From a virus (taxonomy: Duplodnaviria > Caudoviricetes), in IMG/VR virus record IMGVR_UViG_3300012171_000004, positions 1 to 28,276 of that record: 28,276 nt of DNA; one strand, given 5' to 3'. A program made the position numbers and the translations under genes. The number at the start of each line of letters is the position of its first letter. Within the stretch, counting starts at the first letter, position 1. Below, one piece after another: positions 6,210-20,867 of this stretch. The notes below the pieces were generated by a model that saw nothing but the letters and a program-made list of their open reading frames with translations, was not told where the DNA came from and did not search any database.

Positions 6210-7133
6210 ATGGCCAGAGGAAGGAAAACCGCCCGCAAGCCGCGACGCAAAGCAGTCAAGATTCACCTGATCCCACGCCCAGAGCGCAAACCGAAAACGC
6301 CTGACCTGGAATGCCCTTACCACTATCTGGACAAGGCACTCGGATACGCCGAGCACGAGCATCTCGCCGAGGCGAACATTGCCGTTGCCTGGATGCTCGA
6401 CGTTAAAGCCAATGCCGACGGCCAGCTTGTTCTCGGCAAGACACGTCGCGAGGGCGACCTCGACCGGGAGAAAACGTCGCTCCTGGGCGGCGGCAAAAAC
6501 ACGTTCGATTTCATTGTCAGCCTGAACTCAACGGCGTGGAAACACTTCAACGAGAAACAACGCGAAGCCGTGATGTTCCATTGCTTGTGTTTCGGCGGTG
6601 TCGCGCGCGATCGGAAAACCGATGAAGTGATGCGCGACGAGCGCGACCGAATCGTCTATCGAATCAAGAAAGAGGACGTACGCGAATTCGCGGCCGTCAT
6701 TCGTCGATTCGGACTGTACACGCACAGCCTCCAGCAATTCGCCAAGGCCATCGAAGAGGCCCCGCTGTTCAAGGACTTGCCTGACCCGCCGCCGACAAAA
6801 GCGCCCGAAAAAAACCCGAACGAACAAGACGTGCCGAACGAGCCGGATGCCGAATCCAACGGCAAGGTCAACGGCCACGCGCACGCGAACGTTGACGAAA
6901 CCTGGCGCGCCATTCCAATCGGCGAGGCGCTGCAAGGCCTGGGTAGCCGCATCTACAAGGTGTTCGAAGACGCAGAGATCAACACCCTTGGCGACCTCAC
7001 GGACTACCAAGCCAAGAAAGGCGACTTCTGGGTCAAGGACCTGGCCGGCGTCGGACCGAAGGCAGCCGAGGACATCGCGGATGCGTCCGAAGCGTTCTGG
7101 AAACGACACAAGAAGCAAATGGCATCCGCGTGA
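6210..7133 (+). CDS. Phage metallopeptidase-like domain (degenerate) plus C-terminal HhH / RNAP alpha-CTD-like domain
   Basis: AAGGA RBS; HEHLAEANIA, DFIVSLN..W, DVREFAAVIRRFG; C-terminal GLGSRIYKVFEDAEINTLGDL..GVGPKA. Confidence 0.65.
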   Translation: MARGRKTARKPRRKAVKIHLIPRPERKPKTPDLECPYHYLDKALGYAEHEHLAEANIAVAWMLDVKANADGQLVLGKTRREGDLDREKTSLLGGGKNTFDFIVSLNSTAWKHFNEKQREAVMFHCLCFGGVARDRKTDEVMRDERDRIVYRIKKEDVREFAAVIRRFGLYTHSLQQFAKAIEEAPLFKDLPDPPPTKAPEKNPNEQDVPNEPDAESNGKVNGHAHANVDETWRAIPIGEALQGLGSRIYKVFEDAEINTLGDLTDYQAKKGDFWVKDLAGVGPKAAEDIADASEAFWKRHKKQMASA

Positions 7134-7140
7134 TTTCCAA

Positions 7141-7204
7141 GCCTCTCTGCGCGTCGCAGAGGCAACCGGCCGCCGTGTCCTACAAGGCAGCGGCCGGGGT
7201 TTTC
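7141..7204 (+). terminator. Double hairpin followed by TTTT
   Basis: GCCTCTCTGCG/CGCAGAGGC and CCGGCCGC/GCGGCCGG stems in the intergenic gap. Confidence 0.35.
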
Positions 7205-7213
7205 TGAAAAGGA

Positions 7214-7924
7214 ATGGGCATGCAACCGACGGCGACAATTCTGAATTCCGATTGCATCCGCGGCATGGCCGAGATGGTGCCGGGGACCGTGCATCTTGCG
7301 GTGTCGTCGATTCCGTTCGAGGCCCTTTTCGTTTATTCAGGCAAAGATGAAGACGTTGGCAACAACGGCAGCACGATCGACATACTGAAAGGCCGTTTCG
7401 CGCTCAACCTTCGCTTTTTCGCCGAACAGCTTTTCCGCGTGCTCGCGCCTGGGTGCAACTGGTGTTGCCACATTCAGCAGTTGCTGGCCTACAAGAACCA
7501 GCACGGATTCTCTGGCCGCCGCGACTTCCGCGGCGCCACCGTCGACATCTTCGGCGCCGCCGGCTTCCAATTCAAAGGCGAAGTCGCGATCAACAAGGAT
7601 CCGCAGGCGCTGGCAAACAAGCTGAACCTGCACAGCCTGCAATTCAAGACCGGCCACAGTCGCACGGCAACGGATTGGGCGATGGCGCCGAACGATTACG
7701 TACTCATCTTCCAGAAGCCAGGTGAAGTTGCCGTGCCTGTTCGCCCGTTGATCTACCGCGAAGGAAAACGGCCGCTGAAACGCGACGATTGGTTCAAACA
7801 CAACGGCGCTAAAGACGATCGCCGCTACGTCACCTACCTGCGCAATTGGGGCGACGAAGTAAAAGCAAAGAACCCGCGCGGCTGGCTCAGCATGTACGAC
7901 TGGATTGGGCAATTATCCATTTGA
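7214..7924 (+). pseudogene. N4/N6 DNA methyltransferase, N-terminal half, truncated by IS1595 element 1
   Basis: NSDCIRGM, SSIPF (motif IV-like), RVLAPG, DYVLIFQKPG; no FxGxG motif; stop supplied by the IS end. Confidence 0.8.
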
Positions 7925-7963
7925 CTCATCAACGGCCATTTACAGCAAAGGGCGAACCGATGC

Positions 7964-8101
7964 TTAGGTTTTTTTGCGTTTTGCTTTTTTCTTCCGGTAT
8001 CGTTTTTCCGCGCGATCAAGTTCCTTCTTTGGAACCTGCACCAGCTTGCCGAGCAGCGCGTCAAACGCCTGTCCGCCTGTCGGTTTTTTCTCGTCAGCCA
8101 T
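7964..8101 (-). CDS. Small basic IS-associated protein (FDxL..L.QVPK.E.D..K-rich)
   Basis: GGGAGGGAG RBS; three more homologues in the window, each next to an element right end. Confidence 0.7.
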   Translation of the reverse strand: MADEKKPTGGQAFDALLGKLVQVPKKELDRAEKRYRKKKAKRKKT

Positions 8102-8115
8102 TGGACTCCCTCCCG

Positions 8116-9096
8116 TTACTGAATGCCCATGAAACCGGCGTCCCCGATCGCGCACAGCACGCGATAGGTGACGCGCTTGCCAACGACGCCTTGCATCACC
8201 GCATTGAACCGCGAGCCGTCATCCATCAAGCGGAAGTTGAAACGCCAAGCCTCTTCGTCGATGTACCGATCCAGGTGAAACGGCGCGACGTGGACGTAGG
8301 TTCCGCGAATCATCCGCTTCAACAGACTCCAGAAATTTTCGAGGCCGTTCGTGTGGACCTTGCCTTCCGCGTACTTCACGGAATGGTCAACGAAACGGTG
8401 AATGTACCGGGCCGCGATGTTTGCGTAGCTCGTGCTGCTGTCGGTGCAGACGACGGTATCCTTTTCTACGCGGCGCAGGAGTTCGCCCATCAGCGTTTCT
8501 TGTTCCGTGTTCGGGACGACTCTCGCCATGACCTGGCTGGTTTGGTCGCCGCGCTTTTCCCCGCGCTGCAAGACGCCGTGAACGATAGTCTTGCCCACGG
8601 CCCCGCGCCCCTGGATGACGCGCTCGCGTTTGGCCGCGTGCATGTTCTCCGCCAGTCCGCCGACGAAAGTTTCGTCGCTCTCGACTACATCGCGAAATTT
8701 GCGCCCGGTGGGCGTTCCTCCCATTGCCAAGCGGATGCGATGAAGCATGAACCACGCGGTAGGCTGGCGAACGCCGAGCGCCCGCGCGAGTTCGCAACTG
8801 CTGATGCCGTTCTTGGCGTTGGCGATGCACCACACGGCCACGAACCACTTATCCAAGCCGAGCGGCGAATCTTCAAAGATCGTTCCGACCTTGGCGGAAA
8901 ATTGCTTGCGGCATTCCTTCGCCTTGCATTGCAGCATGGACCGGCTGGCGATGACGCCGATCTTGTCGCCGGCGCACGCTGGGCAGACGATCTTGCCATC
9001 GGGCCATTTCTGTTTGACCAGCAGTTGCTGGCAGATAGCCAAGTCAGAGAAATGCCTTACCGCTTCGATCAAGGTTTTTGGGCCGTTCTCGTTCAT
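8116..9096 (-). CDS. IS1595-family DDE transposase
   Basis: Zn ribbon CPAC..CKAKEC, HTH ISSCELARALGVRQPTAW, catalytic-region motifs ESDET, TD, HTNGLENFWSLLKR, YIDEEAWRFN. Confidence 0.96.
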   Translation of the reverse strand: MNENGPKTLIEAVRHFSDLAICQQLLVKQKWPDGKIVCPACAGDKIGVIASRSMLQCKAKECRKQFSAKVGTIFEDSPLGLDKWFVAVWCIANAKNGISSCELARALGVRQPTAWFMLHRIRLAMGGTPTGRKFRDVVESDETFVGGLAENMHAAKRERVIQGRGAVGKTIVHGVLQRGEKRGDQTSQVMARVVPNTEQETLMGELLRRVEKDTVVCTDSSTSYANIAARYIHRFVDHSVKYAEGKVHTNGLENFWSLLKRMIRGTYVHVAPFHLDRYIDEEAWRFNFRLMDDGSRFNAVMQGVVGKRVTYRVLCAIGDAGFMGIQ

Positions 9097-9099
9097 GGG

Positions 9100-9285
9100 T
9101 TACTCTCCACAGAGGCGGTTGTATTCGTCACGCTCGCGCAGGACTTCCTCTGGCGTCTTGCCGTGCCACACGCCGCCGACGATCTTCCCATCGTCGCCGA
9201 TCTTCGGACCGCGCAGCAACTCCAGCAATTTTTGTTCGTCGTCGCCGAACGGCAAGCAATCATCGGGGATCGGTTCAATGGTCAT
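9100..9285 (-). CDS. Small hypothetical cargo protein
   Basis: AGGAG RBS; 3-nt gaps to both neighbours. Confidence 0.65.
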   Translation of the reverse strand: MTIEPIPDDCLPFGDDEQKLLELLRGPKIGDDGKIVGGVWHGKTPEEVLRERDEYNRLCGE

Positions 9286-9288
9286 TGT

Positions 9289-9963
9289 TTACTCCTGGTT
9301 GTGGTCATCGATCAATTGATTGAGTTCGTCGGCGTCGATTTCGTGCCGCATTTCCTTGAGGCGGACGCCCTTGGCCTTCATCAATTCGGCAATTTTCTTT
9401 ACCGTTGGGTATGTGGACGCGAGGCGCTCGCAAACCTCCACGATGTTATCCGACCGTTGCCACGCTGCGACAAAATCGCGCGGATCGATCTTGGCGTTTA
9501 CGGGTCGCCACGCGAGATTATCGGCGCGAATGTTTTTCGGATCACCGTCGGCGTAGGAGATGACGTAGCCGTCCGGCCTTGCGCCGATCCACGATTCGGC
9601 GACCAGCACGGCGGGGACGCAATATACGGACTTGCCGTCCTTTCGCGTCAGCTTGACGCGCCATCGATTGGATTCCTTCGGCGTGATTTTCCTTGGCGGG
9701 TCCGTGTGCGTCGAATAGACAGCGCCGTCAGCGCCGACCAAATACGCCGGGAAGAGTGGGTGGATGCGGACAGGTTCGCCGTCTGGCATTGCCGGCCTAT
9801 CGTCGTGTGGGACATTGCCGACCCCGTGCGGAGCCAAGCCCTGTTTGCGCAACCATTGGGCCACGGCGGATACACTCTTGCCGGTTGCATCTGCGATGTC
9901 GCTGCACGACATGCCGCGATCATACATCGATTGGTACGTCGCGTGGAGTTCTTTTCGTGTCAT
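9289..9963 (-). CDS. HTH + NUMOD4/HNH-like cargo protein, HNH site degenerate
   Basis: GAGGA RBS; MSCSDIADATGKSVSAVAQWL HTH; YLVGADGAVYS; LVAESWIG..ISYADGDPKNIRADNLAW. Confidence 0.7.
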   Translation of the reverse strand: MTRKELHATYQSMYDRGMSCSDIADATGKSVSAVAQWLRKQGLAPHGVGNVPHDDRPAMPDGEPVRIHPLFPAYLVGADGAVYSTHTDPPRKITPKESNRWRVKLTRKDGKSVYCVPAVLVAESWIGARPDGYVISYADGDPKNIRADNLAWRPVNAKIDPRDFVAAWQRSDNIVEVCERLASTYPTVKKIAELMKAKGVRLKEMRHEIDADELNQLIDDHNQE

Positions 9964-9972
9964 GATTTTTCC

Positions 9973-10284
9973 TCATTTGATTGTTACACGGACCAACTGC
10001 GGGAGCGGCCCCTCACTTCGGAGCGGCGGCATCACCGTACATTCAGCCCGCACTCGCTTACCCTTGACCGTGACTTTCCCACGGTAGATCGAGCCGCCGT
10101 TTTTTTGTTTCTCGCTCGCGTCCACGGCGAGCCGGGCCGTCAGGCTCAAGTCGCCAAGCTCGTTTTGAGCGGCGATGAATTCCGGGTTGTCCTCTTCCAG
10201 CTCGCCGCCGCGCCCCGTCAGTGTCATCCACTGACGGACGGCGGCGATGGTGATGTACCATTTCCAGTCGCCTCGGATCGGCAT
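9973..10284 (-). CDS. Hypothetical cargo protein
   Basis: AAGGAG RBS, 103 aa. Confidence 0.7.
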   Translation of the reverse strand: MPIRGDWKWYITIAAVRQWMTLTGRGGELEEDNPEFIAAQNELGDLSLTARLAVDASEKQKNGGSIYRGKVTVKGKRVRAECTVMPPLRSEGPLPQLVRVTIK

Positions 10285-10287
10285 AGC

Positions 10288-10860
10288 TCACTCCTTGGCA
10301 GCGTCGATGATGACTTGAGCGTTCGTGTCGCAGTTACACACGCTGTAGATGGGATCGCCGTCGGTGTATTCGTCGCTGGCGTCTTCCCCGGCGTCTTCGA
10401 TGAGGCGCTCGCTGGCGTCCTTGACCTGTGTCGGCGCCAGATCGGCATCGCGAAATTCGGCGGCGGCGGACGCAGACCAAACGCCGATCTCGCACCAGCC
10501 GCCGGCCTGGTCAGCCGTGAAATCGGCGTCGAGCCATTCTTGGGCCTGATCGTCCGCACAATTCCCGGTGAATCGGTCGCCGTGTCGTTCGAGCGTGTCG
10601 GCCATCTCGATCAGATCGGCGTCGCGTCCGACCATCTTGACCAGCGCCGCCTCGATCTCGTCGGCGTAGTCGTCAGCCTCGTCACCGCCCATCTCCACCA
10701 TTTCGCGGAGAAGGGATTCCATCGCCGCGCGGGGCGAATGGCGGAAATCGGCGACCTGGCGACCGTGTTCATCGCCTTCGATGGGGCAGGACGCTTGGGC
10801 AAAATCCGCCGTCAAGCTGTAGATGTCGCCCATGTACTCAACCGTGTACGTCGTCTTCAT
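10288..10860 (-). CDS. Highly acidic cargo protein (190 aa)
   Basis: First gene after the element promoter; hand count about 46 D+E versus 13 K+R. Confidence 0.75.
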   Translation of the reverse strand: MKTTYTVEYMGDIYSLTADFAQASCPIEGDEHGRQVADFRHSPRAAMESLLREMVEMGGDEADDYADEIEAALVKMVGRDADLIEMADTLERHGDRFTGNCADDQAQEWLDADFTADQAGGWCEIGVWSASAAAEFRDADLAPTQVKDASERLIEDAGEDASDEYTDGDPIYSVCNCDTNAQVIIDAAKE

Positions 10861-10935
10861 GATTTTTCTCGCTTCAAGGGGTCCGACCGTTTCGCCGGTC
10901 GTTCGCGTGTCCGGTGTCATTCACCCGACATCATA

Positions 10936-10963
10936 ATTATACCCGATACTCGTGATGAGTCAA
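10936..10963 (-). promoter_or_regulatory. Sigma70-type promoter overlapping an internal copy of the IR core
   Basis: Minus strand TTGACT-16 nt-TATAAT; the -35 lies in TATACACTTGACTCATCACG, matching the terminal IR. Confidence 0.75.
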
Positions 10964-11091
10964 GTGTATATTCTAGTTATTTCTGAATTTTCTCGAAAAT
11001 AGTTTTCTGTCGTTTCGGACAGGGTATTAGCGTGATGAGTCAAATGGATAATTGCCAAAGGCAAGCATGGAAATCCGAAAGGATGCAAACA

Positions 11092-11646
11092 ATGGCCCGC
11101 ACCGACGACAACTGGATTCAGTCTTTCACTGGCCGGCAAGTATGGCCACTCGATCCGCGCCTCGAGGACATCGACATCCGCGACATCGCGCACCACTTGG
11201 CGATGAAGTGCAGATTCACCGGCGCGGTCAAACGATTCTACTCCGTCGCGCAACATTGCGTCATCGGCTCGCGTTACATCGCGCCTGAGCATGCGCTTTG
11301 GTTTCTCCTGCACGATGCGCCCGAGGCCTACCTATTCGACGCAGCCCGGCCGATCAAGGCCGAGCGGCCATTCATCAAAGAGGACGAAAACCGGCTCATG
11401 GCGTGCATCGCTGCAAAGTTCGAGTTGCCGATGCCGGAGCCAGAAGCCGTGAAGCAGATGGATTATGTGATGCTCCGGACGGAGCGACGAGACTTCATGA
11501 ACGCACCGCCCAGGCCGTGGGCTGACCGTGGGTACGAACCGCTCGCGGAAACGCTGGTGAGCTGGGACCCGGACAAGGCCGAGGCGGAATACCTCATGCA
11601 GTTCGGCAATCTACTGCGAATGCGGCTGCGGAGTATCTGCGAATGA
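11092..11646 (+). CDS. HD-domain phosphohydrolase (YfbR-like 5'-deoxynucleotidase family)
   Basis: IDIRDIAHHLAMKCRFTG, YSVAQH, LLHDAPEAY. Confidence 0.85.
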   Translation: MARTDDNWIQSFTGRQVWPLDPRLEDIDIRDIAHHLAMKCRFTGAVKRFYSVAQHCVIGSRYIAPEHALWFLLHDAPEAYLFDAARPIKAERPFIKEDENRLMACIAAKFELPMPEPEAVKQMDYVMLRTERRDFMNAPPRPWADRGYEPLAETLVSWDPDKAEAEYLMQFGNLLRMRLRSICE

Positions 11647-11689
11647 GAACGAGACCAATTTGTCATGGAATCTTTGGCAGGGATGAACG

Positions 11690-12436
11690 ATGGGCTTTGA
11701 AATACCACTCGATTCGGACTACCCAGAGCATCCGAAGGTTTTGGCCCTGATCGCCTTGCTTGGCGACATGGCCGACGCCATCCCCGTTCGGCTCTGGTGC
11801 TGGTGCGCCAAGTATCAAAAGGACGGCATAGTCCGCGGCGGGCCCGACGCAATTGAAAAGGCCGTCAAATGGAAAAAGAAAAAAGGCGTTTGCCACAAAG
11901 CTCTCATGGAGGTCGGCCTGGTCGATCCCGACGGTATTACCGTCCACGATTGGGGAGACTGGGCCGGTCGAAAAATCGACGCCTACGAGAAGAAAAAAAA
12001 GCGACAAAGAGAGGAGTACGAAGGTCGGAATTCTGCCGGAAGAAACCTGGAAGAAGGTCGGAATTCTGCCGGCATTCTGCAAACCCTAAAAGAAACGAAA
12101 AGAAACGAAAAGAAAACAAACGAAACGAAACGAAACGAAACCGCGCAATCGGCGGAAGAACTTTCGATCGAGCAATTGGCCCAAGATGCGGCTTTCGACG
12201 AGGGTTTTGGCACGAAGCCGGATCGAATCGCCCTTTGGCACAAACACCTCAAAGACCTGGAAAAACGCGGGTTTTCGCTGATTGACCTCGAACGCGAACT
12301 CGCAAACAAGCCGCGAGACACCGAGCCGCCGTGGGAGTTTTACAAGCGTTTGGAGAAGGCCAATGGAAACCAAATTGACCCCTACGCAGGATTCAAAACG
12401 GTCGCCGCCAACGCTAAGGAAGCCCCTGCCGGATGA
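11690..12436 (+). CDS. Phage replication initiator-like protein
   Basis: HPKV..RLWCW..HDW N-terminal domain, internal direct repeats and A-rich tract, followed by a helicase-loader-type gene. Confidence 0.65.
   Translation: MGFEIPLDSDYPEHPKVLALIALLGDMADAIPVRLWCWCAKYQKDGIVRGGPDAIEKAVKWKKKKGVCHKALMEVGLVDPDGITVHDWGDWAGRKIDAYEKKKKRQREEYEGRNSAGRNLEEGRNSAGILQTLKETKRNEKKTNETKRNETAQSAEELSIEQLAQDAAFDEGFGTKPDRIALWHKHLKDLEKRGFSLIDLERELANKPRDTEPPWEFYKRLEKANGNQIDPYAGFKTVAANAKEAPAG
12020..12140. repeat. Putative replication origin: 20-bp direct repeats plus A-rich tract
   Basis: GAAGGTCGGAATTCTGCCGG at 12020-12039 and 12053-12072, then (GAAAC/GAAAA)n; lambda O-like layout. Confidence 0.6.
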
Positions 12437-12977
12437 GGCCGAGACGTTTTGTACAGTGCTCTCGCCTCTCGCGGCCATCTGTCGGCCACCGCTGGACCCC
12501 GAACAAGTTTTGGGATACTTCAACGCCTTGGCCGATCTTCCCCCCGAGGCGATTTTCGTCGCTGCGACCGAGATTGCTGCCGTGCGGCAGTACCCGAGCT
12601 GGCCGATGCCCGGCGAGATCCGGACCGTTGCCGTTCGCTTCATGGCGCCGCAGGTGACGGCTGGCGAGGCCTGGGCCCTGGCACAAAAGGCGGCGCGCCT
12701 GCTCGCCGATCCGTCGATCGACTTCAAAAACGGAAAGCCGGTCGCAGAATGGAACGACCAGATCTTCGCGGCGTTGCCGCCGGCGGTGCAGAAAACGCTC
12801 CGGATTTTCGGCGGACGGCGCATCCTCGAAACGCAAGCCGTGTACGCGAATTTTCGCGACGAGTACGAACGGCAGGTTGCGTTGATCCGTCGACCGCTCA
12901 TGTTGCCGGCGCCGGCGAAAACGTTAATCGCCGGTTTGCTCGCGAAAAGCGACGTTGCGAGGAAACTGATCGCATGA
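12363..12977 (+). CDS. Helicase loader/inhibitor-like (G39P-like) protein
   Basis: YFNALADLP..WPMPGEIR..AGEAW; position after the initiator gene. Confidence 0.55.
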   Translation: METKLTPTQDSKRSPPTLRKPLPDEAETFCTVLSPLAAICRPPLDPEQVLGYFNALADLPPEAIFVAATEIAAVRQYPSWPMPGEIRTVAVRFMAPQVTAGEAWALAQKAARLLADPSIDFKNGKPVAEWNDQIFAALPPAVQKTLRIFGGRRILETQAVYANFRDEYERQVALIRRPLMLPAPAKTLIAGLLAKSDVARKLIA

Positions 12978-13030
12978 CTCAATCCCTCTTCATGACCGGC
13001 GACGCCACGTTCAGCCCATGCGGCCGCTAT
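12974..13030 (+). pseudogene. DUF1643-like protein N-terminal stub, cut by the MITE
   Basis: MTQSLFMTGDATFSPCGRY matches the AxFSxCGxYRY start of DUF1643 proteins; the remainder is absent after the MITE. Confidence 0.6.
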
Positions 13031-13206
13031 GGCAATGACATACTTGACGCATCAAAGGAGCGTGGTTTATTCACGCAGCGTTTGTGATGGGGAGCGTCCA
13101 CAGCTACCCGTGGCCAGACCCTCGCAGCCGATCTAACGGGCATCGGCACAGTGAATTGTGGAGCCGGAGAATAACCGGCCTTTGATGCGTCAAGTATGTC
13201 ATTGCC
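13031..13206. mobile_element. IS1595-related MITE (176 bp)
   Basis: Perfect 28-bp IR GGCAATGACATACTTGACGCATCAAAGG (13031-58 and 13179-206); its first 24 bp are identical to the end at 17446; no TSD. Confidence 0.85.
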
Positions 13207-13227
13207 CAAAAAATCAGGCCCCCCCCG

Positions 13228-13422
13228 ATGTTTGGCCTTTTACTCGCGCTCTCCCTGGTGCTCGGCGCCTGCGTGTTGTTGGTGGGCCGCTTGTTCTGTC
13301 TGGCGGTCTACGGCCCGCTCGATGAGCATAACAGCGATCGCATCGGCTGCGCCTCACTGGTCTCGCTGGTATTGATTATTAGCGCGTTTGTGTTGGCGGT
13401 CGTTGCGCTGTGTTCGCTTTAA
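13228..13422 (+). CDS. Small membrane protein (2 TM)
   Basis: Two hydrophobic stretches; weak RBS. Confidence 0.5.
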   Translation: MFGLLLALSLVLGACVLLVGRLFCLAVYGPLDEHNSDRIGCASLVSLVLIISAFVLAVVALCSL

Positions 13423-13434
13423 GGAGTCCCCTTG

Positions 13435-13668
13435 ATGTTCCAGATCACCAATCCCCGCGACTTGACGCCGGCCGAGATCGACGACTTATTGTTGACGTTC
13501 GATCAAACGGACCCGGCATTGCAACGCCGGATCATCGCGCGTTACATGATCGATCGAACCGTGCTATTGGACGCCTGTAGGAAGACGGCCGCGGCGGATG
13601 AAAGGAACTTCGGCGAGATGCAAGGAATGCTGGAAGCGGTCATACAGAACGTGACGAGGAAACCATGA
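13435..13668 (+). CDS. Hypothetical protein
   Basis: AAGGAG RBS; ATGA overlap with the next gene. Confidence 0.6.
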   Translation: MFQITNPRDLTPAEIDDLLLTFDQTDPALQRRIIARYMIDRTVLLDACRKTAAADERNFGEMQGMLEAVIQNVTRKP

Positions 13669-15125
13669 GCGCGCGGATTCTACAAGGCGACGTGTTCTCC
13701 CAGCTGCCGACGATCAAGCCCCGATCGGTCGATTGCGTCGTTACGTCGCCGCCCTACTGGATGCTCCGCTCGTATCTCCCGAAAGGTAATCTCTTGAAAC
13801 GTTTCGAGTTGGGCCTTGAGAAGACGCCGCAAGAGTACATCGCCAACATGGTCCGCGTGTTCCAGCTGGTGCGCGAGACGATGGCCGATCATGCGACGTG
13901 CTGGATCAACGTGGGGGACACTTACGCGGACGATTCAAAGTACGGCGGCGCAACGGGCGGCAAGCACGTAAAGGCACTGCACGGCCAAACTGGAATCAAC
14001 AGAGAGAAAAAGGAATCGGGCATTGACGCCGGCAACCTTTGCCTCATCCCGCAACGCCTGATGATCGCCTTGCAGGATGATGGCTGGATTGTCCGTAGCG
14101 TGGTGATCTGGCACAAGCCCGCGCCGATGCCGAGTAGCGTGTCAGGTTGGGCATGGAAGCGATGCCGCATCAGGGATCCAAAATTCACGCACACGCAATA
14201 CGGCGGCAAAGGCGCGGAGCTTGACAGGCAATCAGCGTCGGAGCGAATCAAGCAAAACGTCGCAACAAGCCGCGCCAATGGCATGCCGCACGACAGCGCG
14301 ACGGTAGGACATCTCGGCTGGATCGACTGCCCAGGCTGCAAAAAGTGTCGGCCAGCTGGCGGCTACGTCCTCCGCAAAGGCAGCTGGCGTCCCACGTCGG
14401 CGTATGAGCCGATCATCATGCTCGCGAAGACGGCGGATTACTTTTGCGATGGCGAATCAGTTAAGACGCCGAGCAACGGGCATCGCGGTTCGTCGTTCGT
14501 GGATCAACGGGACTTCGACGTTTACGAGAACCTCGGTACGGACGCAAGGGCAGAAGTGAGTAGCGCGAATCTCCGCGACGTTTGGCGTGTCCCGCTTGAG
14601 GACATGAGCAAGGAAGATTTGATCGGCTTCATTCAGAGCATGGACGATGGCCATCTGCCGGACGTATGGCGCATCGCCGCCGAGCCCCTCAAGGACGCCC
14701 ACTACGCCGCCTTCCCCACGGAGTTAGCCAGGAAGTGCCTGCAAGCCGGAACCTCGGCGAAGGGCTATTGTCCAGCGTGCGGCAAGCCGTGGGTGCGCGT
14801 CATCGAATCGAAGTCGGTGCCTCATCCAAGCCCGCGAAAGAACGTAACGAATCGCCAAGGTGCTATCGACACCAAGGGCGGCAACCAGGCGAACGGGAGC
14901 GCATCGACGAGTCCAGAGGTCAACACGATCGGCTGGCGGCCGTCGTGCAGCTGCCCAAAGGATGAACCGCGTCCCGCTCTCGTGCTCGATCCCTTCGCCG
15001 GGAGCGGTCGAACTGGTCAAGCGGCGCAATGGTTGGGCCTCGATTTTGTCGGCGTCGAGTTGAACCCTGTCTACGTGGAAATGGCCGAACGAATCTTGAG
15101 AGAGGACGCGCCGTTATTCGCTTAA
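13665..15125 (+). CDS. N4/N6 DNA methyltransferase (beta arrangement) with Cys-rich insertions
   Basis: VVTSPPY near the N-terminus, HYAAFP, VLDPFAGSG, GVELNPVY near the C-terminus. Confidence 0.92.
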   Translation: MSARILQGDVFSQLPTIKPRSVDCVVTSPPYWMLRSYLPKGNLLKRFELGLEKTPQEYIANMVRVFQLVRETMADHATCWINVGDTYADDSKYGGATGGKHVKALHGQTGINREKKESGIDAGNLCLIPQRLMIALQDDGWIVRSVVIWHKPAPMPSSVSGWAWKRCRIRDPKFTHTQYGGKGAELDRQSASERIKQNVATSRANGMPHDSATVGHLGWIDCPGCKKCRPAGGYVLRKGSWRPTSAYEPIIMLAKTADYFCDGESVKTPSNGHRGSSFVDQRDFDVYENLGTDARAEVSSANLRDVWRVPLEDMSKEDLIGFIQSMDDGHLPDVWRIAAEPLKDAHYAAFPTELARKCLQAGTSAKGYCPACGKPWVRVIESKSVPHPSPRKNVTNRQGAIDTKGGNQANGSASTSPEVNTIGWRPSCSCPKDEPRPALVLDPFAGSGRTGQAAQWLGLDFVGVELNPVYVEMAERILREDAPLFA

Positions 15126-15239
15126 ACCGTTGCCAACGCAAAACAGGCCAGTCAAAAGGGAGTCCGTCGAAAGCCTCAACGCAAAAGCGTACGCGCTTCC
15201 CGCAGCAGGATTTTCGTGTACCGCAAAAAGGAAAATCAA

Positions 15240-15434
15240 ATGGACAGCTATCACACCATCCCCAACACGAATGCCAAAGGCACCCTACTCTGTCTGGGCA
15301 AGTCGATCAGAGCTACATTCATTGATCCTGACGAAGCCGCGTTAGCAGCCGAAGCATTGAACGCGGTGATCGATGCGCCGATAGCGCTCGTGCCCGTCGA
15401 GGACCTCCAGCCCGCCTATCGGATGGAGGATTGA
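15240..15434 (+). CDS. Hypothetical protein
   Basis: AAGGA RBS before MDSYH. Confidence 0.5.
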   Translation: MDSYHTIPNTNAKGTLLCLGKSIRATFIDPDEAALAAEALNAVIDAPIALVPVEDLQPAYRMED

Positions 15435-15437
15435 GCG

Positions 15438-15650
15438 ATGATCGACCGCACCAAGAAAATCAACGGCCACAAGCCAAAGTCCCCGGCCGAACGCCTTGTC
15501 GAAGAGCTGGCCGCATTGAACCGCAAGCGCGAGGAACGCCTGAACCGTTTGGATCGCGATCATCGCATCTGGAATTGGTGCTGGGTCATCTTCGTCGGCG
15601 TCGGGTTGTTGGTTGTTATTGTGCAGATGGTTTCCACGATGCTGAGGTAA
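15438..15650 (+). CDS. Small protein with C-terminal TM helix
   Basis: GGAGGA RBS; WVIFVGVGLLVVIV. Confidence 0.6.
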   Translation: MIDRTKKINGHKPKSPAERLVEELAALNRKREERLNRLDRDHRIWNWCWVIFVGVGLLVVIVQMVSTMLR

Positions 15651-15652
15651 AA

Positions 15653-15792
15653 CCTCTCGCTGACCGCCGTGCGACATGCTGCCCGTCTAGCGCTGCGGGC
15701 GGCTTCTCCGGTGTGCGAAACAAGCCGCGTTACTCGAAGAGCGCGGTTTGGGCTGAGCTATCCGTACTCGATTCACGGCGGTCAACGAGGGG
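15653..15792 (+). ncRNA. Candidate multibranch, degenerate tRNA-like RNA
   Basis: 19-nt closing arms 15653-71 and 15774-92 (17/19 match), two inner hairpins, T-loop-like CCGTA-CTCGATT-CACGG. Confidence 0.45.
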
Positions 15793-15813
15793 CTTTGAGA
15801 CGAAAGGTGTTGC

Positions 15814-16044
15814 ATGAAACCCGAAGCTGAAATCCGCTCGCACATCGAAAGTTTGCGCACCTGTCAACAGATTCCATGCGGCTGCAAGGGCACGGCGCAC
15901 GCGCACGAGTGCATTGCCGGCGGAAAGATGATGAAGGCCGTTGAGATGTCGTTGTTGTGGGCGCTCGGCGAAAATCCGGCGCACGAGGAAATGGTCGCAG
16001 ATTTGCGCCGTGCGGCCGACGATTACAAAACGAGCCTCAATTGA
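15814..16044 (+). CDS. Hypothetical protein
   Basis: AAAGGTG RBS; 76 aa. Confidence 0.6.
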   Translation: MKPEAEIRSHIESLRTCQQIPCGCKGTAHAHECIAGGKMMKAVEMSLLWALGENPAHEEMVADLRRAADDYKTSLN

Positions 16045-16298
16045 ACGTGCCGACCGACGTGTTGACGACATTGACCAGTTATGAAGGTGCCGGGATTCAT
16101 TCGGATTCCAAGCCGCACATCGTCACGAAGGACGGGATACGCCGACTCACGGCAAGGGAGCACGAGAGAGCGCAGGGTTTCCCGGATGATTGGACTGACG
16201 GGCTACAAGATCGAACGCGGCGGATGCTGGTCGGAAATGCAGTGGTGCCGGCGATAGCAGAATGGATCGGCACTCGCTTGATGCGTCAGGTATGTTAA
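16041..16298 (+). pseudogene. C5 cytosine methyltransferase C-terminal fragment (motifs IX-X)
   Basis: IRRLTAREHERAQGFPDDW and GNAVVPAIAEWIG; stop lies inside the IS end at 16279-16302. Confidence 0.8.
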
Positions 16299-16302
16299 TG
16301 CC
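16279..16302. mobile_element. Orphan IS1595-type end
   Basis: TGATGCGTCAGGTATGTTAATGCC; 1 mismatch to the reverse complement of the end at 16472. Confidence 0.75.
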
Positions 16303-16333
16303 CAACCCAAGAGGAAGACGTGATGAACGCCGC

Positions 16334-16388
16334 GTTCGCAAGTTCGCGGGTTCGCGGGTTCGCTCGCGGGTTCGCGGGTTCGCTCGCG
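16334..16388. repeat. GTTCGC-based tandem repeat
   Basis: Perfect 20-mer TCGCGGGTTCGCGGGTTCGC at 16344-63 and 16364-83; six GTTCGC units in total. Confidence 0.85.
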
Positions 16389-16509
16389 TCTGGGGTCCTT
16401 CCCCGGCTTTTGACGTCCGACACTGCACCACGAACAGCCGGAAAACCAAACTTTGTTGCGCAGTTTCGTTGGGCATTAACATACTTGACGCATCACGGAG
16501 CGAAAACGG

Positions 16510-16731
16510 GTGACTGACCTGCGTTCTCCATATCCCTGGTTTGGTGGCAAGATCGGCGCGTATTGTCTGTGGGGCAAGTTTCCCGATTTCGAGGCGACGA
16601 CGAGCAAGCGCAAGGAATCGCTGCCAAGCTGGAAGAAGCAAGAGCGGGCGCTTGTGCCATACTCAATTTCGCTGGCGCTGGCGCTGGCGTGCGAGGCGAA
16701 ATGGAACGGGATCATTGAGGTGGCTGTATGA
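16510..16731 (+). pseudogene. Chimeric remnant: Dam-like N-terminus fused to an unrelated C-terminus
   Basis: SPYPWFGGK is the start of D12-class adenine MTases; the rest (LWGKFP..ERALVPYSIS) is not Dam-like. Confidence 0.55.
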
Positions 16732-16961
16732 ACGCCAAACAAAAGAATGCAGTCGTTCGCTTGGGGAAAGCCCTGGAAGCCTGTCACAAAGCCGGACTGA
16801 TGGGCGGCGTCTATGACGGATCGTTTTGGGCATGGCCAGCCGCCTCGCCTGACCCGCGAGACGGTCCCGACAAAGAGTTCGGAGCGTTCTTTCTCAACGT
16901 CGATGCGGTTGGAATGAAGGCAGAAACCAAGATGTCCCTTGATGGTGGCGCAGGAGCTTAA
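16728..16961 (+). CDS. Hypothetical cargo protein
   Basis: GAGGTG RBS; 77 aa. Confidence 0.65.
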   Translation: MNAKQKNAVVRLGKALEACHKAGLMGGVYDGSFWAWPAASPDPRDGPDKEFGAFFLNVDAVGMKAETKMSLDGGAGA

Positions 16962-16964
16962 TTC

Positions 16965-17240
16965 ATGAATCATTCGGTGAAGTACGTCGAAGGCCGGGTT
17001 CACACGAACGGGCTGGAGAATTTCTGGAGTCTGTTGAAGCGATGCGTTCGCGGAACCTGGGTCCACGTTGCGCCGTTCCACTTGCAGCGCTATCTCGACG
17101 AACAATGCTGGCGATTCAATTTCCGCAAGCTCACCGATGGGCAGCGATTCAGCGCGGTCATGAAAGGTGTTCTCGGCAGACGGATCACGCGGCGCTTGTT
17201 GTGCGCCGAAGGCGATGCCGGATTTATGGGGATCGAGTGA
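16965..17240 (+). pseudogene. IS1595 transposase C-terminal 91 aa
   Basis: HTNGLENFWSLLKR..GDAGFMGIE, homologous to the two full transposases. Confidence 0.9.
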
Positions 17241-17380
17241 TGACGAAATCCAAGGATCGGAAGGAGTTCGACAAGGCAATGGCGGCGCTAGTCCAGGTGC
17301 CGAAAACGGAAATGGACGACGCTCTACGCAAAGAGCGAGAGGCGAAGGCCAAAGCCAAGAAAAAGCGCAAACGAAAGTGA
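17240..17380 (+). CDS. Small basic IS-associated protein
   Basis: MTKSKDRKEFDKAMAALVQVPKTEMDD..KKKRKRK; TGATG coupling to the transposase. Confidence 0.7.
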   Translation: MTKSKDRKEFDKAMAALVQVPKTEMDDALRKEREAKAKAKKKRKRK

Positions 17381-17446
17381 AAAACAGAGTGTCCATTGTT
17401 GCCCTACTGGTTCGCCTTACCTTGATGCGTCAAGTATGTCATTGCC

Positions 17447-17619
17447 AAAGCATTCGATAGTCTCGCGAAGAAATTGGCGCAGGTTCCGCGCAATCTCGTT
17501 GATGCTGCCGAGCAGCGACACGAGAAAAAGAAGCAACAGAAGAAAAAGAAGCGGAAATCATAGTTCGGTATTAGCCTTGCTCGCTGACCCCGGTTGGTGA
17601 GCCAGGTATCCAAACCGCC
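17447..17619 (+). mobile_element. Remnant right end of a fourth related element
   Basis: 17447-17563 encodes KAFDSLAKKLAQVPRNLVD..KKKKRKS*, followed by a degenerate end TGGTGAGCCAGGTATCCAAACCGCC. Confidence 0.6.
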
Positions 17620-17966
17620 CACGGCCCCCGAAGTGAGCAAAGAGAACTCGAACTCACTGAGGGAAGAAAACTCCCGTCGAAAACGCGAAAAGTGCCAGGC
17701 CACGCGATACAATGGCGGCAAAGGAGTTGAACATGTCCCTGAACGAACGCCTAACAAAATACGGAATTCGGTGCAGAGTCTTCACGTACGCGCGTTGCGG
17801 CTGCGTCGGCCCCGGCAACTGGGTCGCATGCCAGAAGTGCGACACCGAAGCAGCCACGGCCAATCCCAAAGAAAGGCAATTATCCATTTGACTCACCACG
17901 GTCAAACCTGTCACATTGACAGGCGCACTATTTCGAGAAATCTTGTCGGATAACTGAATTATACAC

Positions 17967-17994
17967 TTGACGCACCACGCTTTTCTGTTAGAAT
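17967..17994 (+). promoter_or_regulatory. Sigma70-type promoter overlapping an internal copy of the IR core
   Basis: TTGACG-16 nt-TAGAAT; the -35 lies in AATTATACACTTGACGCACCACG. Confidence 0.7.
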
Positions 17995-18073
17995 GTAGGT
18001 GTCAGGACGAATCCTGACGACGCGGTTCGGGCGAGTCCGAACGGTAGGGCTGACAACCCTGGGAGATTGAGCA

Positions 18074-18391
18074 ATGACAAAGAAAAAAGCAGAGTCCGGC
18101 AAGTCCGCGACCCACACTCCTGGTCCTTGGAAATTCATCGAAGGCGACCGGGATCGCATGGCGATGAGCGATGTTGTCTTGGAATCTGATGATGAATTCC
18201 GCATCGCTTACGTTCTTTGCGAATTCAGAAGTGAGCAAGCCCGCGCAACCGACATTGCGAATGCGCGCCTGATCGCCAGCGCGCCGGACTTGCTTGAAGT
18301 TCTGGAAATGGTCGCAACCCTGGATCGCGCCACGACTGCTGGCGAGAAACGTAAAATCGCGGCAGTTATCGCCAAAGCGAAGGGGGCGTGA
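18074..18391 (+). CDS. Phage-type cargo protein (HTPGPW..ANARLIAxAPDLLE family)
   Basis: GGGAG RBS; motif widespread in small phage proteins. Confidence 0.75.
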   Translation: MTKKKAESGKSATHTPGPWKFIEGDRDRMAMSDVVLESDDEFRIAYVLCEFRSEQARATDIANARLIASAPDLLEVLEMVATLDRATTAGEKRKIAAVIAKAKGA

Positions 18392-18394
18392 ACT

Positions 18395-18820
18395 ATGAGG
18401 ATCAAGAAATCCAAATTGGTCGCTCGCGACGAAGTTAATTCGTTGTTGTCGTTTCTGCGCGACTACTCCCGCGCCAAACGCGGCTCGGCTATGGCGCTCA
18501 TCCGAGAGCTTCGCCTGGCTATCCGGCAGGCGAATCACGGACAGAGCGGTGAACTTGAGGACGGGAGCGACGACTATTGTCCTTCGCTGGCGGAAGGCGA
18601 CGTTTTGCTCGCGATCCTGAACATGGTCGAACGAGACTTTGGAATCAAGGTTTCCAGCCTGGACCGTGTTGGGCGCTGTGATTGGGAAATCCTCGATCAC
18701 GTCGAAAAGAAGGTCGAACATTCGGACGAGTGCAAGGCCATCCAGCCGATGCTGTCCGGCACCGACACGAGCGGTTGTCACGCTAACTGCCCTGTTGCCA
18801 AAGCGAAAGGTGGTGCGTAA
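18395..18820 (+). CDS. Hypothetical cargo protein
   Basis: 141 aa, 3-nt gap to the upstream gene. Confidence 0.7.
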   Translation: MRIKKSKLVARDEVNSLLSFLRDYSRAKRGSAMALIRELRLAIRQANHGQSGELEDGSDDYCPSLAEGDVLLAILNMVERDFGIKVSSLDRVGRCDWEILDHVEKKVEHSDECKAIQPMLSGTDTSGCHANCPVAKAKGGA

Positions 18821-19069
18821 ATGGCGAAGAAAAAACAGATGTCCGCGACCGACCTTGCCAAACTCTGCCAGTCGCTCAACGTGCCCGACGAGGCATTCGA
18901 CGGCGATCTGCGCGACGCCGCCGACGACGCAGCGGAATTGATTTTCGAGACCGTCAAAGGTCAGGATTGGGATGAAAAGTTCCAATTCCTGATGGACCAC
19001 GGCTTTCAACCGGGGCGATTGCAACAGTTGATTGAGGAGTACGCCAACACCGGCGGTAATCCTCTGTGA
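18821..19069 (+). CDS. Small acidic cargo protein
   Basis: AGGTGG RBS; abuts the upstream stop; D/E-rich core. Confidence 0.7.
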   Translation: MAKKKQMSATDLAKLCQSLNVPDEAFDGDLRDAADDAAELIFETVKGQDWDEKFQFLMDHGFQPGRLQQLIEEYANTGGNPL

Positions 19070-19153
19070 CGAAACCCCTCCCGCGCGGTGCGGGCTGTCA
19101 ACCTGCCAGTCGCAAGACTGAAAGCCGCGCGGGAGACATTTTTCGAGAACAGC

Positions 19154-19456
19154 ATGACTAATGAACAATGGAAAGAACGCCTGCTGCGAGACACCAGCAG
19201 AGGCGGCTTGTCCGATTACAAAATCAGCGATTTGCGACGTGCAGCGAAAGAGGCAGGCGCGACCGTCGAGCGAGACTCGGAAGGACGATACACCGTCTAT
19301 CAAATCATTGCGCCAGAAGGAAAGCTGTGGGCCGATGGCGCATGCTCCGCAATGCGTGTTGAATGGCTCACTGGATACGGAGATTTCCGCAGTCTCTCGA
19401 TTGGCGGCGCAATTCAGCGCATGGAAGCTGGTTTCATTGACGACGAAGGGGAATGA
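19154..19456 (+). CDS. Hypothetical cargo protein
   Basis: ATG after a structured spacer; 100 aa. Confidence 0.65.
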   Translation: MTNEQWKERLLRDTSRGGLSDYKISDLRRAAKEAGATVERDSEGRYTVYQIIAPEGKLWADGACSAMRVEWLTGYGDFRSLSIGGAIQRMEAGFIDDEGE

Positions 19457-19459
19457 ACC

Positions 19460-20431
19460 ATGAACGACGAAGGCCCGCAAACCCTGATCGAAGCCGTGAA
19501 ACACTTCGCCGACTTGACGCTGTGCCACAAGCTGATGGTCAACCTCAAGTGGCCAGACGGCAAAATCGTCTGCCCGAAATGCGGCGGGGACAAAATCGGG
19601 ATGATTGCAACTCGCTCGCTCCTGCGATGCAACACGAAGGGATGCCGGAAGCAGTTTAGCGCCAAGGTCGGAACCATCTTCGAGGATTCGCCTCTCGGCT
19701 TGGATAAGTGGTTCGTCGCTGTGTGGTGCATTGCCAACGCCAAGAACGGCATCAGCTCGTGCGAGCTGGCGCGGGCTCTTGGCGTGCGCCAGCCTACCGC
19801 GTGGTTCATGCTCCATCGCGTTCGGCTCGCGATGAATACTCCATCGGGCCGCAAGTTTCACAACGTTGTCGAGTCCGACGAAACCTACATCGGCGGCGCT
19901 GCTGCGAACATGCACAAGGCGAAGCGCGAGAAAGTCATCAAGGGCCGTGGCGGAGTCGGCAAGGTCATCGTGCAGGGATTGCTGGAGCGCGGCAACAAAG
20001 ACGACGTTAGCCAGGTCAAGGCCACGGTTGTCCCGAACGTTGAGCAAATCACGCTGATGGGCGAATTGATGCGCCACGTCGAACCCAACACGTTCGTCTG
20101 TACGGATAGTTCCCTGAGCTACGCCAATCTCGCGGCCCGATACGTTCACGAATTCGTCGATCATTCGGTGCAATACGTGCGCGGCAAAGTCCACACGAAC
20201 GGGCTTGAAAATTTCTGGTCGCTTTTGAAACGGATGATCCGGGGAACCTACGTCAGTGTTGCGCCATTCCACTTGCAGCGGTATCTCGACGAAGAGGTTT
20301 GGCGCTACAACCAACGGAAGCTGAACGATGGACGACAGTTCGCTCTGGCGATGAAAGGCACCATCGGAAAACGCATCACGTACCGGCTGCTCTGTGCGGT
20401 CGGGGACGCTGGTTTCATGGGGATCGAATGA
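19460..20431 (+). CDS. IS1595-family DDE transposase
   Basis: CPKC..CNTKGC, HTH, ESDETY, TDSS, HTNGLENFWSLLKR; clearly homologous but not identical to 8116-9096. Confidence 0.96.
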   Translation: MNDEGPQTLIEAVKHFADLTLCHKLMVNLKWPDGKIVCPKCGGDKIGMIATRSLLRCNTKGCRKQFSAKVGTIFEDSPLGLDKWFVAVWCIANAKNGISSCELARALGVRQPTAWFMLHRVRLAMNTPSGRKFHNVVESDETYIGGAAANMHKAKREKVIKGRGGVGKVIVQGLLERGNKDDVSQVKATVVPNVEQITLMGELMRHVEPNTFVCTDSSLSYANLAARYVHEFVDHSVQYVRGKVHTNGLENFWSLLKRMIRGTYVSVAPFHLQRYLDEEVWRYNQRKLNDGRQFALAMKGTIGKRITYRLLCAVGDAGFMGIE

Positions 20432-20664
20432 TGAGCAAGTGCAAGGAATGCAACGGGCTTGGCGACCATTCAAACGCGGCCCTTGGAAGAGGATCGTCGC
20501 ACCCATGCCCTCGGTGTGGCGGAACTGGCGTTGAGCCAAAGCAGAAACCGACTGGCGGCAAGGCGTTCGATGCGCTGGCATCGGCGCTTGTGCGCGTTCC
20601 GAAAGCGGAAGTCGATCAAGCGGCAAAACGATACCGAGCAAAACGGCGAAAAAAGAAAAAATGA
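20428..20664 (+). CDS. Small basic IS-associated protein with N-terminal CxxCxGxG Zn finger
   Basis: CKECNGLG..CPRCGGTG, then KPTGGKAFDALASALVRVPKAEVD..KKKK. Confidence 0.7.
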   Translation: MMSKCKECNGLGDHSNAALGRGSSHPCPRCGGTGVEPKQKPTGGKAFDALASALVRVPKAEVDQAAKRYRAKRRKKKK

Positions 20665-20867
20665 ACGTCATTGGTTTAGCCTTTGCTGTCATCGCGGTTT
20701 GGTGAGTCAAATGGATAATTGCCCAAAGAAACCATCGCGCCGACGGACGAACCAACCGCCGACGCCGACAAGCCGACGCTCATCAGCAAGGAACCGGAAT
20801 GACCACGAACATAGACGACCGAATCGACCAAGTCCTTTTCCCGTTGGGACGAACGCGCTAGACCAGC

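Follow-up and report, generated by a model that had tools for sequence, protein, structure and literature searches.

We have analysed a window of 28,276 nt, the whole of virus record IMGVR_UViG_3300012171_000004 (Duplodnaviria; Caudoviricetes), which carries two transposons here called E1 and E3. Our results suggested, with moderate confidence, that both are cargo-carrying IS1595 transposons of a phage-enriched lineage and that they serve as mobile cassettes for the expression of phage accessory genes with mixed functions, only a minority of which probably act in counter-defence. Their clade is a distinct variant of the known IS1595 transporter insertion sequences (tIS), with an inward promoter and a cargo slot upstream of the transposase. 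Both elements are bounded by inverted repeats (IRs):

7908-11056, minus strand: element E1, IS1595-family tIS of 3149 bp; 24-nt IRs at 7908-7931 and 11033-11056; without target duplication.
17875-20723, plus strand: element E3, IS1595-family tIS of 2849 bp; 24-nt IRs; perfect 8-bp target duplication CAAAGAAA.

A preliminary description of this DNA had proposed that the two elements are built on one chassis, and this was borne out. The IRs are self-complementary at 24/24 positions in each element and agree at 23/24 between E1 and E3. The left ends are 75% identical across nt 1-106 (E 1.9e-10) and past the IR (nt 25-130) their alignment scored 89, far above the 21.5 +/- 7.6 (maximum 48) obtained with 500 shuffles. 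The transposases share 74% identity in DNA and 75% in protein; both pass NF033547 (187 bits, cut-off 75) and match PF12760 and PF12762 (zinc ribbon and ISXO2-like DDE domain) above cut-off. The promoter has a common position, at offset +94 in E1 and +93 in E3, and a basic gene trails the transposase in both. The insertion of E3 breaks a small open reading frame that starts at 17712, directly upstream of the terminase gene. Read from the promoter, E1 contains:

10936-10976, minus strand: internal sigma-70-type promoter TTGACT-16-TATAAT; -35 at 10963, inside a partial IR copy.
10288-10860, minus strand: cargo a, 190 aa, net charge -33; conserved acidic phage family; alternative start at 10920.
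9973-10284, minus strand: cargo b, 103 aa; predicted BECR (RelE/ParE/colicin D-like) fold.
9289-9963, minus strand: cargo c, 224 aa; N-terminal helix-turn-helix (HTH) plus HNH endonuclease (PF13384, PF13392); not a stand-alone HTH of the anti-CRISPR-associated (Aca) type.
9100-9285, minus strand: cargo d, 61 aa; acidic; no family.
8116-9096, minus strand: IS1595 transposase, 326 aa; zinc ribbon plus ISXO2-like DDE domain.
7964-8101, minus strand: trailing basic gene, 45 aa; no Pfam family.

The corresponding features of E3 are:

17954-17994, plus strand: internal promoter TTGACG-16-TAGAAT; -35 at 17967; IR-like copy over the -35 box.
18074-18391, plus strand: cargo a, 105 aa; phrog_1273 / PF27050 (phage P22 Y8K6 family).
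18395-18820, plus strand: cargo b, 141 aa; no family.
18821-19069, plus strand: cargo c, 82 aa; acidic; no family.
19154-19456, plus strand: cargo d, 100 aa; mildly acidic; no family.
19460-20431, plus strand: IS1595 transposase, 323 aa.
20431-20664, plus strand: trailing basic gene, 77 aa; extra N-terminal CxxC zinc-finger-like part.

Between left end and transposase, E1 and E3 have no DNA similarity except one 13-nt chance match, and the four cargo proteins of E1 gave no BLASTP match to the four of E3; the claim of four unrelated cargo genes apiece thus holds. The cargo gene junctions are mostly 0-9 nt, and no repeat family of integron-like sites was seen between the cargo genes of either element among the 20 largest listed. 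Other parts of the earlier picture did not survive. The supposed HTH gene at 9289-9963 is really a fusion of HTH and HNH endonuclease, and E3 has no HTH gene. The cargo had also been called often acidic: four of the eight genes are (pI 4.05-4.9) and four are not, and the cargo is not significantly more acidic than the flanking genes.

Viral contigs were searched with five transposase queries, and genomes and metagenomes with one apiece; this gave 264 distinct loci (numbered here with the prefix L), 254 of them of tree length; all viral matches were kept, and the genome and metagenome searches were partial scans from which only the best 80 of about 590 were retained. The transposases of E1 and E3 fall in a clade of 56 tips (FastTree support 0.96; IQ-TREE 93/96 in a 49-row subset) that is nested, under midpoint rooting, among Planctomycetota chromosomal elements. 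As had been predicted, this clade is enriched in phage DNA. With the same query its share was 33/52 of the viral loci, 6/77 of the genome loci and 10/79 of the metagenome loci (6/58 viral loci were too short for the tree); the Fisher p of 2e-11 for viral versus genome loci overstates the certainty, since the genome and metagenome scans were partial, just the best 80 matches were kept and the tips are related. Five of the six genome members were scanned for their flanks (E<=1e-5): L073, L075, L082 and L087 sit among phage replication, recombination, Mu-type or portal genes and L077 has ambiguous flanks. At the same threshold the metagenome member L162 adjoins a terminase. An exact-IR scan of viral contigs returned only records of E3 itself and L022, and close relatives of the transposase were absent from a cultured-phage collection, where one match reached 37%, and from a plasmid collection, which gave no match.

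The clade also has its own layout. Its cargo lies upstream of the transposase in 41 complete and 10 partial elements among the 56 tips (downstream in 4, on both sides in 1), whereas among the 198 tips outside it the transposase usually starts about 40-90 nt past the left IR and the cargo follows downstream (134 complete and 41 partial elements), the upstream layout being found in 6 and cargo on both sides in 6. The layout is reversible within the clade, since L013 and L016, 84% identical over the transposase, carry their cargo on opposite sides, one upstream and the other downstream. The slots of E1 and E3 are the second and third longest among complete upstream-type elements. The trailing basic gene, 40-50 aa long and of no Pfam family, is present in all 52 clade elements with a right end and in 55/134 downstream-type elements. 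In 401 genomes from the phylum of a Planctomycetaceae genome, two had matches at E<=1e-60, and all three loci have an IR within about 70 nt of the transposase. Phage hallmark genes (clusters for head, tail or replication; E<=1e-10) were found within 5 kb of 0/14 random chromosomal downstream-type elements, drawn from 30 with long flanks; there was one DnaC-like match. The longest downstream gene had a Pfam match in 41 of 131 tested elements: 16 were restriction-modification or methylase genes, 16 DUF3800, 2 RelA/SpoT, 2 DUF4145, and one each HEPN, HipA, IrrE-like peptidase, trypsin and AlbA_2. No other single passenger of these chromosomal-type elements was named as often as DUF3800 (16/131; L042, L049, L050, L069, L101 and others).

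An internal sigma-70 promoter was found in 36/45 clade elements (3.6 expected from shuffles) versus 5/172 downstream-type elements, and those of E1 and E3 are two of only three sites in the window that score at least 10/12. Thus a strong promoter ahead of small genes, a feature of the operons that pair anti-CRISPR (Acr) and Aca genes, is present in 36/45 elements. In the downstream type, a TTGAC within the IR serves as the -35 box, and a -10 box follows it in 129/172 elements (47/134 for the right-IR control) versus 12/45 of the upstream type. The internal -35 box of the clade sits within an IR-like stretch, where the hexamer is followed by CA in 30/36 promoters, and the context score exceeds that of 58 flanking phage promoters (p 6e-12). 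This arrangement suggests an inward duplication of a transposase-binding site together with the promoter, and a transposase that may repress its own operon. No Aca-type repressor would then be needed, because an IR-like copy over the -35 box would let the transposase itself repress. Note that insertion orientation relative to the neighbouring genes is random at the viral loci (15 same, 13 opposite, 5 mixed).

Cargo turnover in the clade is nearly complete. All 41 complete upstream-type elements carry at least one upstream gene (1-6 genes), and only 6 of the 820 pairs of these elements have an upstream cargo family in common, one being an identical pair, three sharing the P22 Y8K6 family and two being weak; the cargo is therefore not constant across homologues. 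In five close pairs, whose transposases are 83-88% identical, just the left end, the transposase and the right end are common: DNA similarity ends 70-155 nt past the left end, where detected, and restarts at the transposase start. The last cargo gene ends -11 to +15 nt from the transposase start in 24/36 elements. The family of E3 cargo a recurs once in L010 and twice in L023, and related genes (70-79% identical) lie upstream of the transposase in L026 and downstream in L155.

The 121 called cargo genes are small, with a median of 87 aa and 102 of at most 130 aa. Searches were made with 112 cargo proteins of relatives, nine of them from the extra cassettes of L028; seven had a Pfam and 19 a PHROG match. 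The named genes are DNA methyltransferases (L011, L082, L028, L153), two phosphoadenosine phosphosulfate (PAPS)-reductase-like genes (PAPS-reductase/SspD-like; L024, L028), HNH and zinc-finger proteins, DUF5710 and phrog_1273. The commonest family, P22 Y8K6, also occurs outside elements, in the flanks of L154 and L161. Neither ordinary housekeeping genes nor resistance genes were seen in these library searches, and no Acr, Aca or resistance family was found among the cargo with Pfam, PHROGs, NCBIfam and PADLOC. A Pfam HTH was found in 0/112 cargo proteins of relatives; L067 gave one D5-like PHROG match, in a protein with an HNH-family domain. A pI below 5.5 was found in 39.5% of 81 cargo proteins versus 33.1% of 302 neighbouring small phage genes (Fisher p 0.29, Mann-Whitney p 0.077). 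The resemblance to an acr-aca operon that had been suggested was thus not upheld beyond the promoter.

Known anti-defence matches numbered 1/112 in the cargo versus 0/150 among random small flanking genes, which gave one methylase. The single match, the first passenger of L155 (1197-1412), has an Acb2/Tad1 hairpin (PF24729) above the cut-off, at 29.8 bits, and a weak Tad1 match (E 0.042); the other cargo of L155 matches the upstream cargo of L026. L025 carries a solo Cas8g-like gene of type I-G (6799-7524; PADLOC E 1.5e-7; TIGR04106 E 5.6e-7, below cut-off) with 28 homologues and no sequence relative in the PDB. Carried alone by a phage transposon, such a Cas8-like gene might serve as a decoy for CRISPR. 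A 66-aa phage gene that adjoins the element in L153 (2468-2668; phrog_1761/phrog_5120) is possibly Acb2-like.

The first two cargo genes of E1 were also studied by structure prediction. Cargo a gave a confident model (pLDDT 95.8), and its family is acidic throughout, with a net charge of -24 to -40 in 27/27 sequences. Its fold had no PDB match at E<=0.001; the best was VIA at Z 5.0, and BFVD gave one uncharacterised phage protein. A known DNA mimic or Acr was considered and set aside, as structural matches were absent, an absence that leaves such a role possible. Homologues of cargo a occur at 15 viral loci, several of them near-duplicates; they lie among small phage genes, and neither an IR nor a transposase was seen within 5 kb of them. 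For cargo b, structure ranks 2-10 were all BECR toxins (CdiA-CT, Z 6.3, root-mean-square deviation 3.6 over 92 residues; colicin D, Z 6.2; ParE, BrnT and MqsR, Z 5.2-5.8); the best overall Z was 7.2, under 8, and there was no Foldseek match at E<=0.001, no PDB sequence match and no Atlas match above 0.75. On this fold-level lead, the predicted protein is possibly a ribonuclease. Its homologues are 45-99% identical; the one viral homologue lies in a phage small-gene region, with no IR or transposase within 5 kb. Prediction of cargo a and cargo b as a bound pair scored 0.02 and gave no answer.

The window encodes terminase, portal and head proteins of lambda type, RusA, a replication initiator and ParB, besides several DNA methyltransferases, and it has nine IR ends of one family and one internal IR-like copy. 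The terminase large subunit (20868-23360, gpA type) has an in-frame N-terminal HNH domain, and short tandem repeats of 8-10-nt units lie at 16336-16383, between two IR ends, and at 12078-12137, inside the replication initiator gene. The other units with IR ends, and their parts, are:

13031-13206, no strand assigned: miniature inverted-repeat transposable element (MITE), 176 bp; perfect 28-nt IRs of the E1/E3 family; no target duplication here.
16047-16302, plus strand: 3' remnant of a C5 DNA methyltransferase gene, ending inside the IR at 16279-16302.
16472-17446, plus strand: 'element 2', a composite ruin; left IR, and right IR at 17423-17446.
16549-16731, plus strand: fused gene of 'element 2', 13 codons of one gene joined to a methyltransferase-like 3' part.
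16728-16961, plus strand: 77-aa gene of 'element 2'.
16965-17240, plus strand: transposase remnant of 'element 2', last 91 codons only.
17240-17380, plus strand: trailing basic gene of 'element 2'.
17447-17618, plus strand: further element remnant; truncated trailing basic gene to 17563; degenerate right IR at 17595-17618.

'Element 2', which had been described as a further cargo-bearing element, is therefore not intact. In L153, DNA that matches 16549-16969 at 100% precedes a full transposase, which shares 89% identity with the 91-codon remnant; there the 176-bp MITE supplies the left end, and the left end and 13 codons seen in the window stem from another gene. The MITE encodes no transposase, and a second copy or another flank of it was found in L153 and run X21. 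The methyltransferase remnant, which the IR at 16279-16302 closes in the same way as in the single-gene cassette L028:396-2005, is likely the right half of such a cassette.

An assembly artefact was rejected. Long contigs from DNA runs X1 and X2 match the region without differences (both runs may be its source), L152 and L001 match the window at 100%, L001 being the same element as E3, and the same layout recurs in dozens of unrelated contigs. The end of E1 at 7908 is joined to a different flank in X14 (DNA) and X23 (RNA), and in X22 to 7334, with 573 nt skipped; the ends at 16302 (in X14) and 13031 also occur at other flanks, and the L153-type join 13030/16549 was seen in X14. End-precise joins are expected products of transposition and of adjacent deletion, and a methyltransferase gene (7214-7924) and a small gene (12974-13030) are cut exactly at the ends of E1 and of the MITE, consistent with adjacent deletions in a phage that is decaying or changing fast. 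Such end-precise deletions, together with the alternative flanks at 7908, likely account for the absence of a target duplication from E1. Among complete clade elements, 31/46 have a perfect 8-bp duplication. No end-to-end joint of a circular intermediate was found among the contig joins listed, which come from assembled contigs only and are uninformative on this point. RNA contigs from 4/4 metatranscriptomes overlap parts of E1 and E3, none over 21029-21500, a weak signal in which DNA is possibly present and by which the genes cannot be ranked.

Similar arrangements were observed elsewhere. Transposase-less IR-bounded cassettes with perfect 8-bp duplications lie near autonomous elements at L038:11059-11512, L061:5624-7049 and L248:6120-6627. 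In another phage, at least five IS1595-type units, nested and in tandem and with duplications, occupy 8.6 kb (L028:396-9034); a C5-methylase cassette and two E1-like left ends are among them, and at 8001-8885 the N-terminal part of a transposase is fused to an HNH domain. Here a 1528-bp cassette of five small genes without a transposase has inserted into a 3529-bp element, and both cassette and element have 8-bp duplications of their own.

We propose that the 24-nt IRs are likely the binding sites of the transposase, which would move the unit and leave an 8-bp duplication. From the sigma-70 promoter, located 60-140 nt in from the left end, transcription is predicted to pass through the cargo before it reaches the transposase, in any insertion orientation, and the transposase would repress the operon through the IR-like copy at the -35 box. 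Cargo may be swapped by recombination between related co-resident elements, with left end and transposase as flanking homology, and restocked from phage early operons. The lineage likely descends from Planctomycetota chromosomal elements with defence-type genes downstream of the transposase, as the midpoint-rooted tree suggests.

Several points weigh against this interpretation. The IQ-TREE bootstrap of 93 is under the starred level and the root is a midpoint root; the enrichment was measured on unequally sampled, related and non-independent elements, with L001 duplicating E3; the cargo genes were called with a simple custom script, and some calls are doubtful. Both the recombinational swapping and the autorepression are steps that we infer from the sequences. 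The window is peppered with deletions and broken elements, the pattern expected of a decaying prophage, so some arrays may be neutral debris. Finally, 105/112 cargo proteins have no Pfam match, and unrecognised counter-defence genes could for this reason be the majority. E1 and E3 would then be dedicated counter-defence shuttles, most of whose cargo inhibits restriction, CRISPR or signalling defences and is expressed early, as in acr operons. Since most cargo has no recognised function we keep this as a candidate, although we judge it unlikely. It accords with the strong promoter directly before small genes, the phage enrichment, the Acb2/Tad1 hairpin (29.8 bits) and solo Cas8g-like cargo, the methyltransferases and PAPS-reductase/SspD-like genes, which could protect phage DNA, and the chromosomal relatives, whose defence-type cargo suggests a family that traffics in conflict genes. 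The constantly acidic family of E1 cargo a (-24 to -40, 27/27) points the same way, strongly negative charge being a trait of DNA mimics. However, no Acr, Aca, ArdA or Ocr match by sequence and no Aca-type HTH was found in the cargo (new Acrs usually have no homology to known ones), acidity is not significantly above that of flanking genes, 1/112 versus 0/150 is no demonstrable enrichment, and the commonest cargo family is also found outside elements. According to the available text of a published screen of 200 phage accessory genes, about 10 had counter-defence activity (10.1101/2023.04.06.535777), a rate with which the sparse matches in our cargo are compatible.

The cargo could also be selfish or neutral, picked up by chance from neighbouring phage genes, with toxin-like or homing-type genes benefiting the element and the rest hitchhiking. 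The BECR toxin-like fold predicted for E1 cargo b, the HNH endonuclease of cargo c, the broken elements and end-precise deletions that abound in the region, and the L153 MITE that gives a new left end to phage-type genes before a full transposase would all fit, but the cargo is nearly all intact, co-oriented and tightly packed, with the last gene abutting the transposase start in 24/36 elements; moreover, the promoter is conserved across the clade, cargo families are conserved (45-99% for E1 cargo b homologues) and no recurring toxin-antitoxin pair was seen among the cargo. We consider this distinctly improbable. Very improbable, in our view, is that the cargo genes are morons, expressed in the lysogen to help host or prophage against superinfecting phages and keeping the defensive role of the chromosomal relatives. 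Almost no PADLOC matches above chance were found in the cargo, DNA-modification enzymes aside, the genes are short (median 87 aa versus 286 aa for the longest gene in the defence cargo of relatives), and homologues sit in phage early-type clusters. On the other side stand the orientation-independent sigma-70 promoter, the prophage settings, the sister elements with defence genes, the BECR-like protein, which as modelled could act as an abortive-infection toxin, and the RNA contigs over E1 and E3, weak as these are given that DNA is possibly present.

Our preferred interpretation, mobile expression cassettes with mixed accessory cargo, is best seen against known systems. IS1595-family tIS that carry passengers and have 25-bp IRs and 8-bp duplications are described in the available parts of PMC5704250, 10.1101/2021.05.26.445724 and PMC3129680. 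Like MTnSag1/tISSag10 and tISCpe8, as described in the available text of PMC5704250, E1 and E3 have an IS1595 DDE transposase, IRs of about 25 bp, an 8-bp duplication and passengers inside the IRs. Unlike these, the clade occurs mainly in phages and prophages, with 1-6 small phage-type genes before the transposase, a promoter inside the left end, a conserved 45-aa basic gene behind the transposase, near-complete cargo turnover and no resistance genes. The IR start GGCAATTAT and the size of 2.8-3.1 kb fit the signature and size range of the ISNwi1 group with passengers, to which the elements may belong; the clade reverses the transposase-first layout of its chromosomal relatives.

As in acr-aca operons, to the extent that the text available for PMC12282945 describes them, a strong promoter precedes small genes in phage DNA, likely under autorepression; the clade differs in having no Aca-type HTH and no Acr homologue, in an IR-bounded operon that ends in the transposase, and in predicted repression through a transposase site. 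The MITE and the methyltransferase-cassette remnants of the window resemble MITEs and mobile insertion cassettes such as MIC231 (PMC3129680, in its available portion) and were likely moved in trans, as likely were the cassettes without transposase in L028, L038, L061 and L248, which share the IR family of E1 and E3. Unlike MIC231-type cassettes, E1 and E3 are autonomous, and the window-type cassettes are IS1595-type and phage-resident. Phage accessory and early-region arrays, as far as they are covered in the accessible text of 10.1101/2023.04.06.535777, likewise hold small, fast-turnover, mostly uncharacterised genes with a counter-defence minority and share the P22 Y8K6 family with the clade, but the clade packs array and promoter into a transposon that moves itself. 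In the literature covered, outside subscription journals, ISfinder and the supplements of bioRxiv preprints, no paper was found that describes IS1595 cargo elements living in phages.

Insertion sequences in phages are usually regarded as damage. Here, one transposon lineage appears to be phage-specialised, with a rewired promoter, a sharply bounded slot and full cargo turnover between transposases that are 88% identical, and it gives small accessory genes, with their promoter, a concrete way in which they may move between unrelated phage genomes. Because IRs and target duplications fix the boundaries exactly, the approximately 120 cargo genes form a ready, well-delimited panel for counter-defence screening. 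The contrast with the defence cargo of the chromosomal relatives makes the idea of a transposon that changed sides directly testable. In that scenario, which is speculative and which we consider unlikely, the lineage left the chromosome for phages and defence-carrying ancestors became, through an inward promoter and a transposase acting as repressor, a self-mobile counter-defence cassette. If this were true, the first slot behind the promoter would mark hundreds of anti-defence genes by association, as aca does for anti-CRISPRs.

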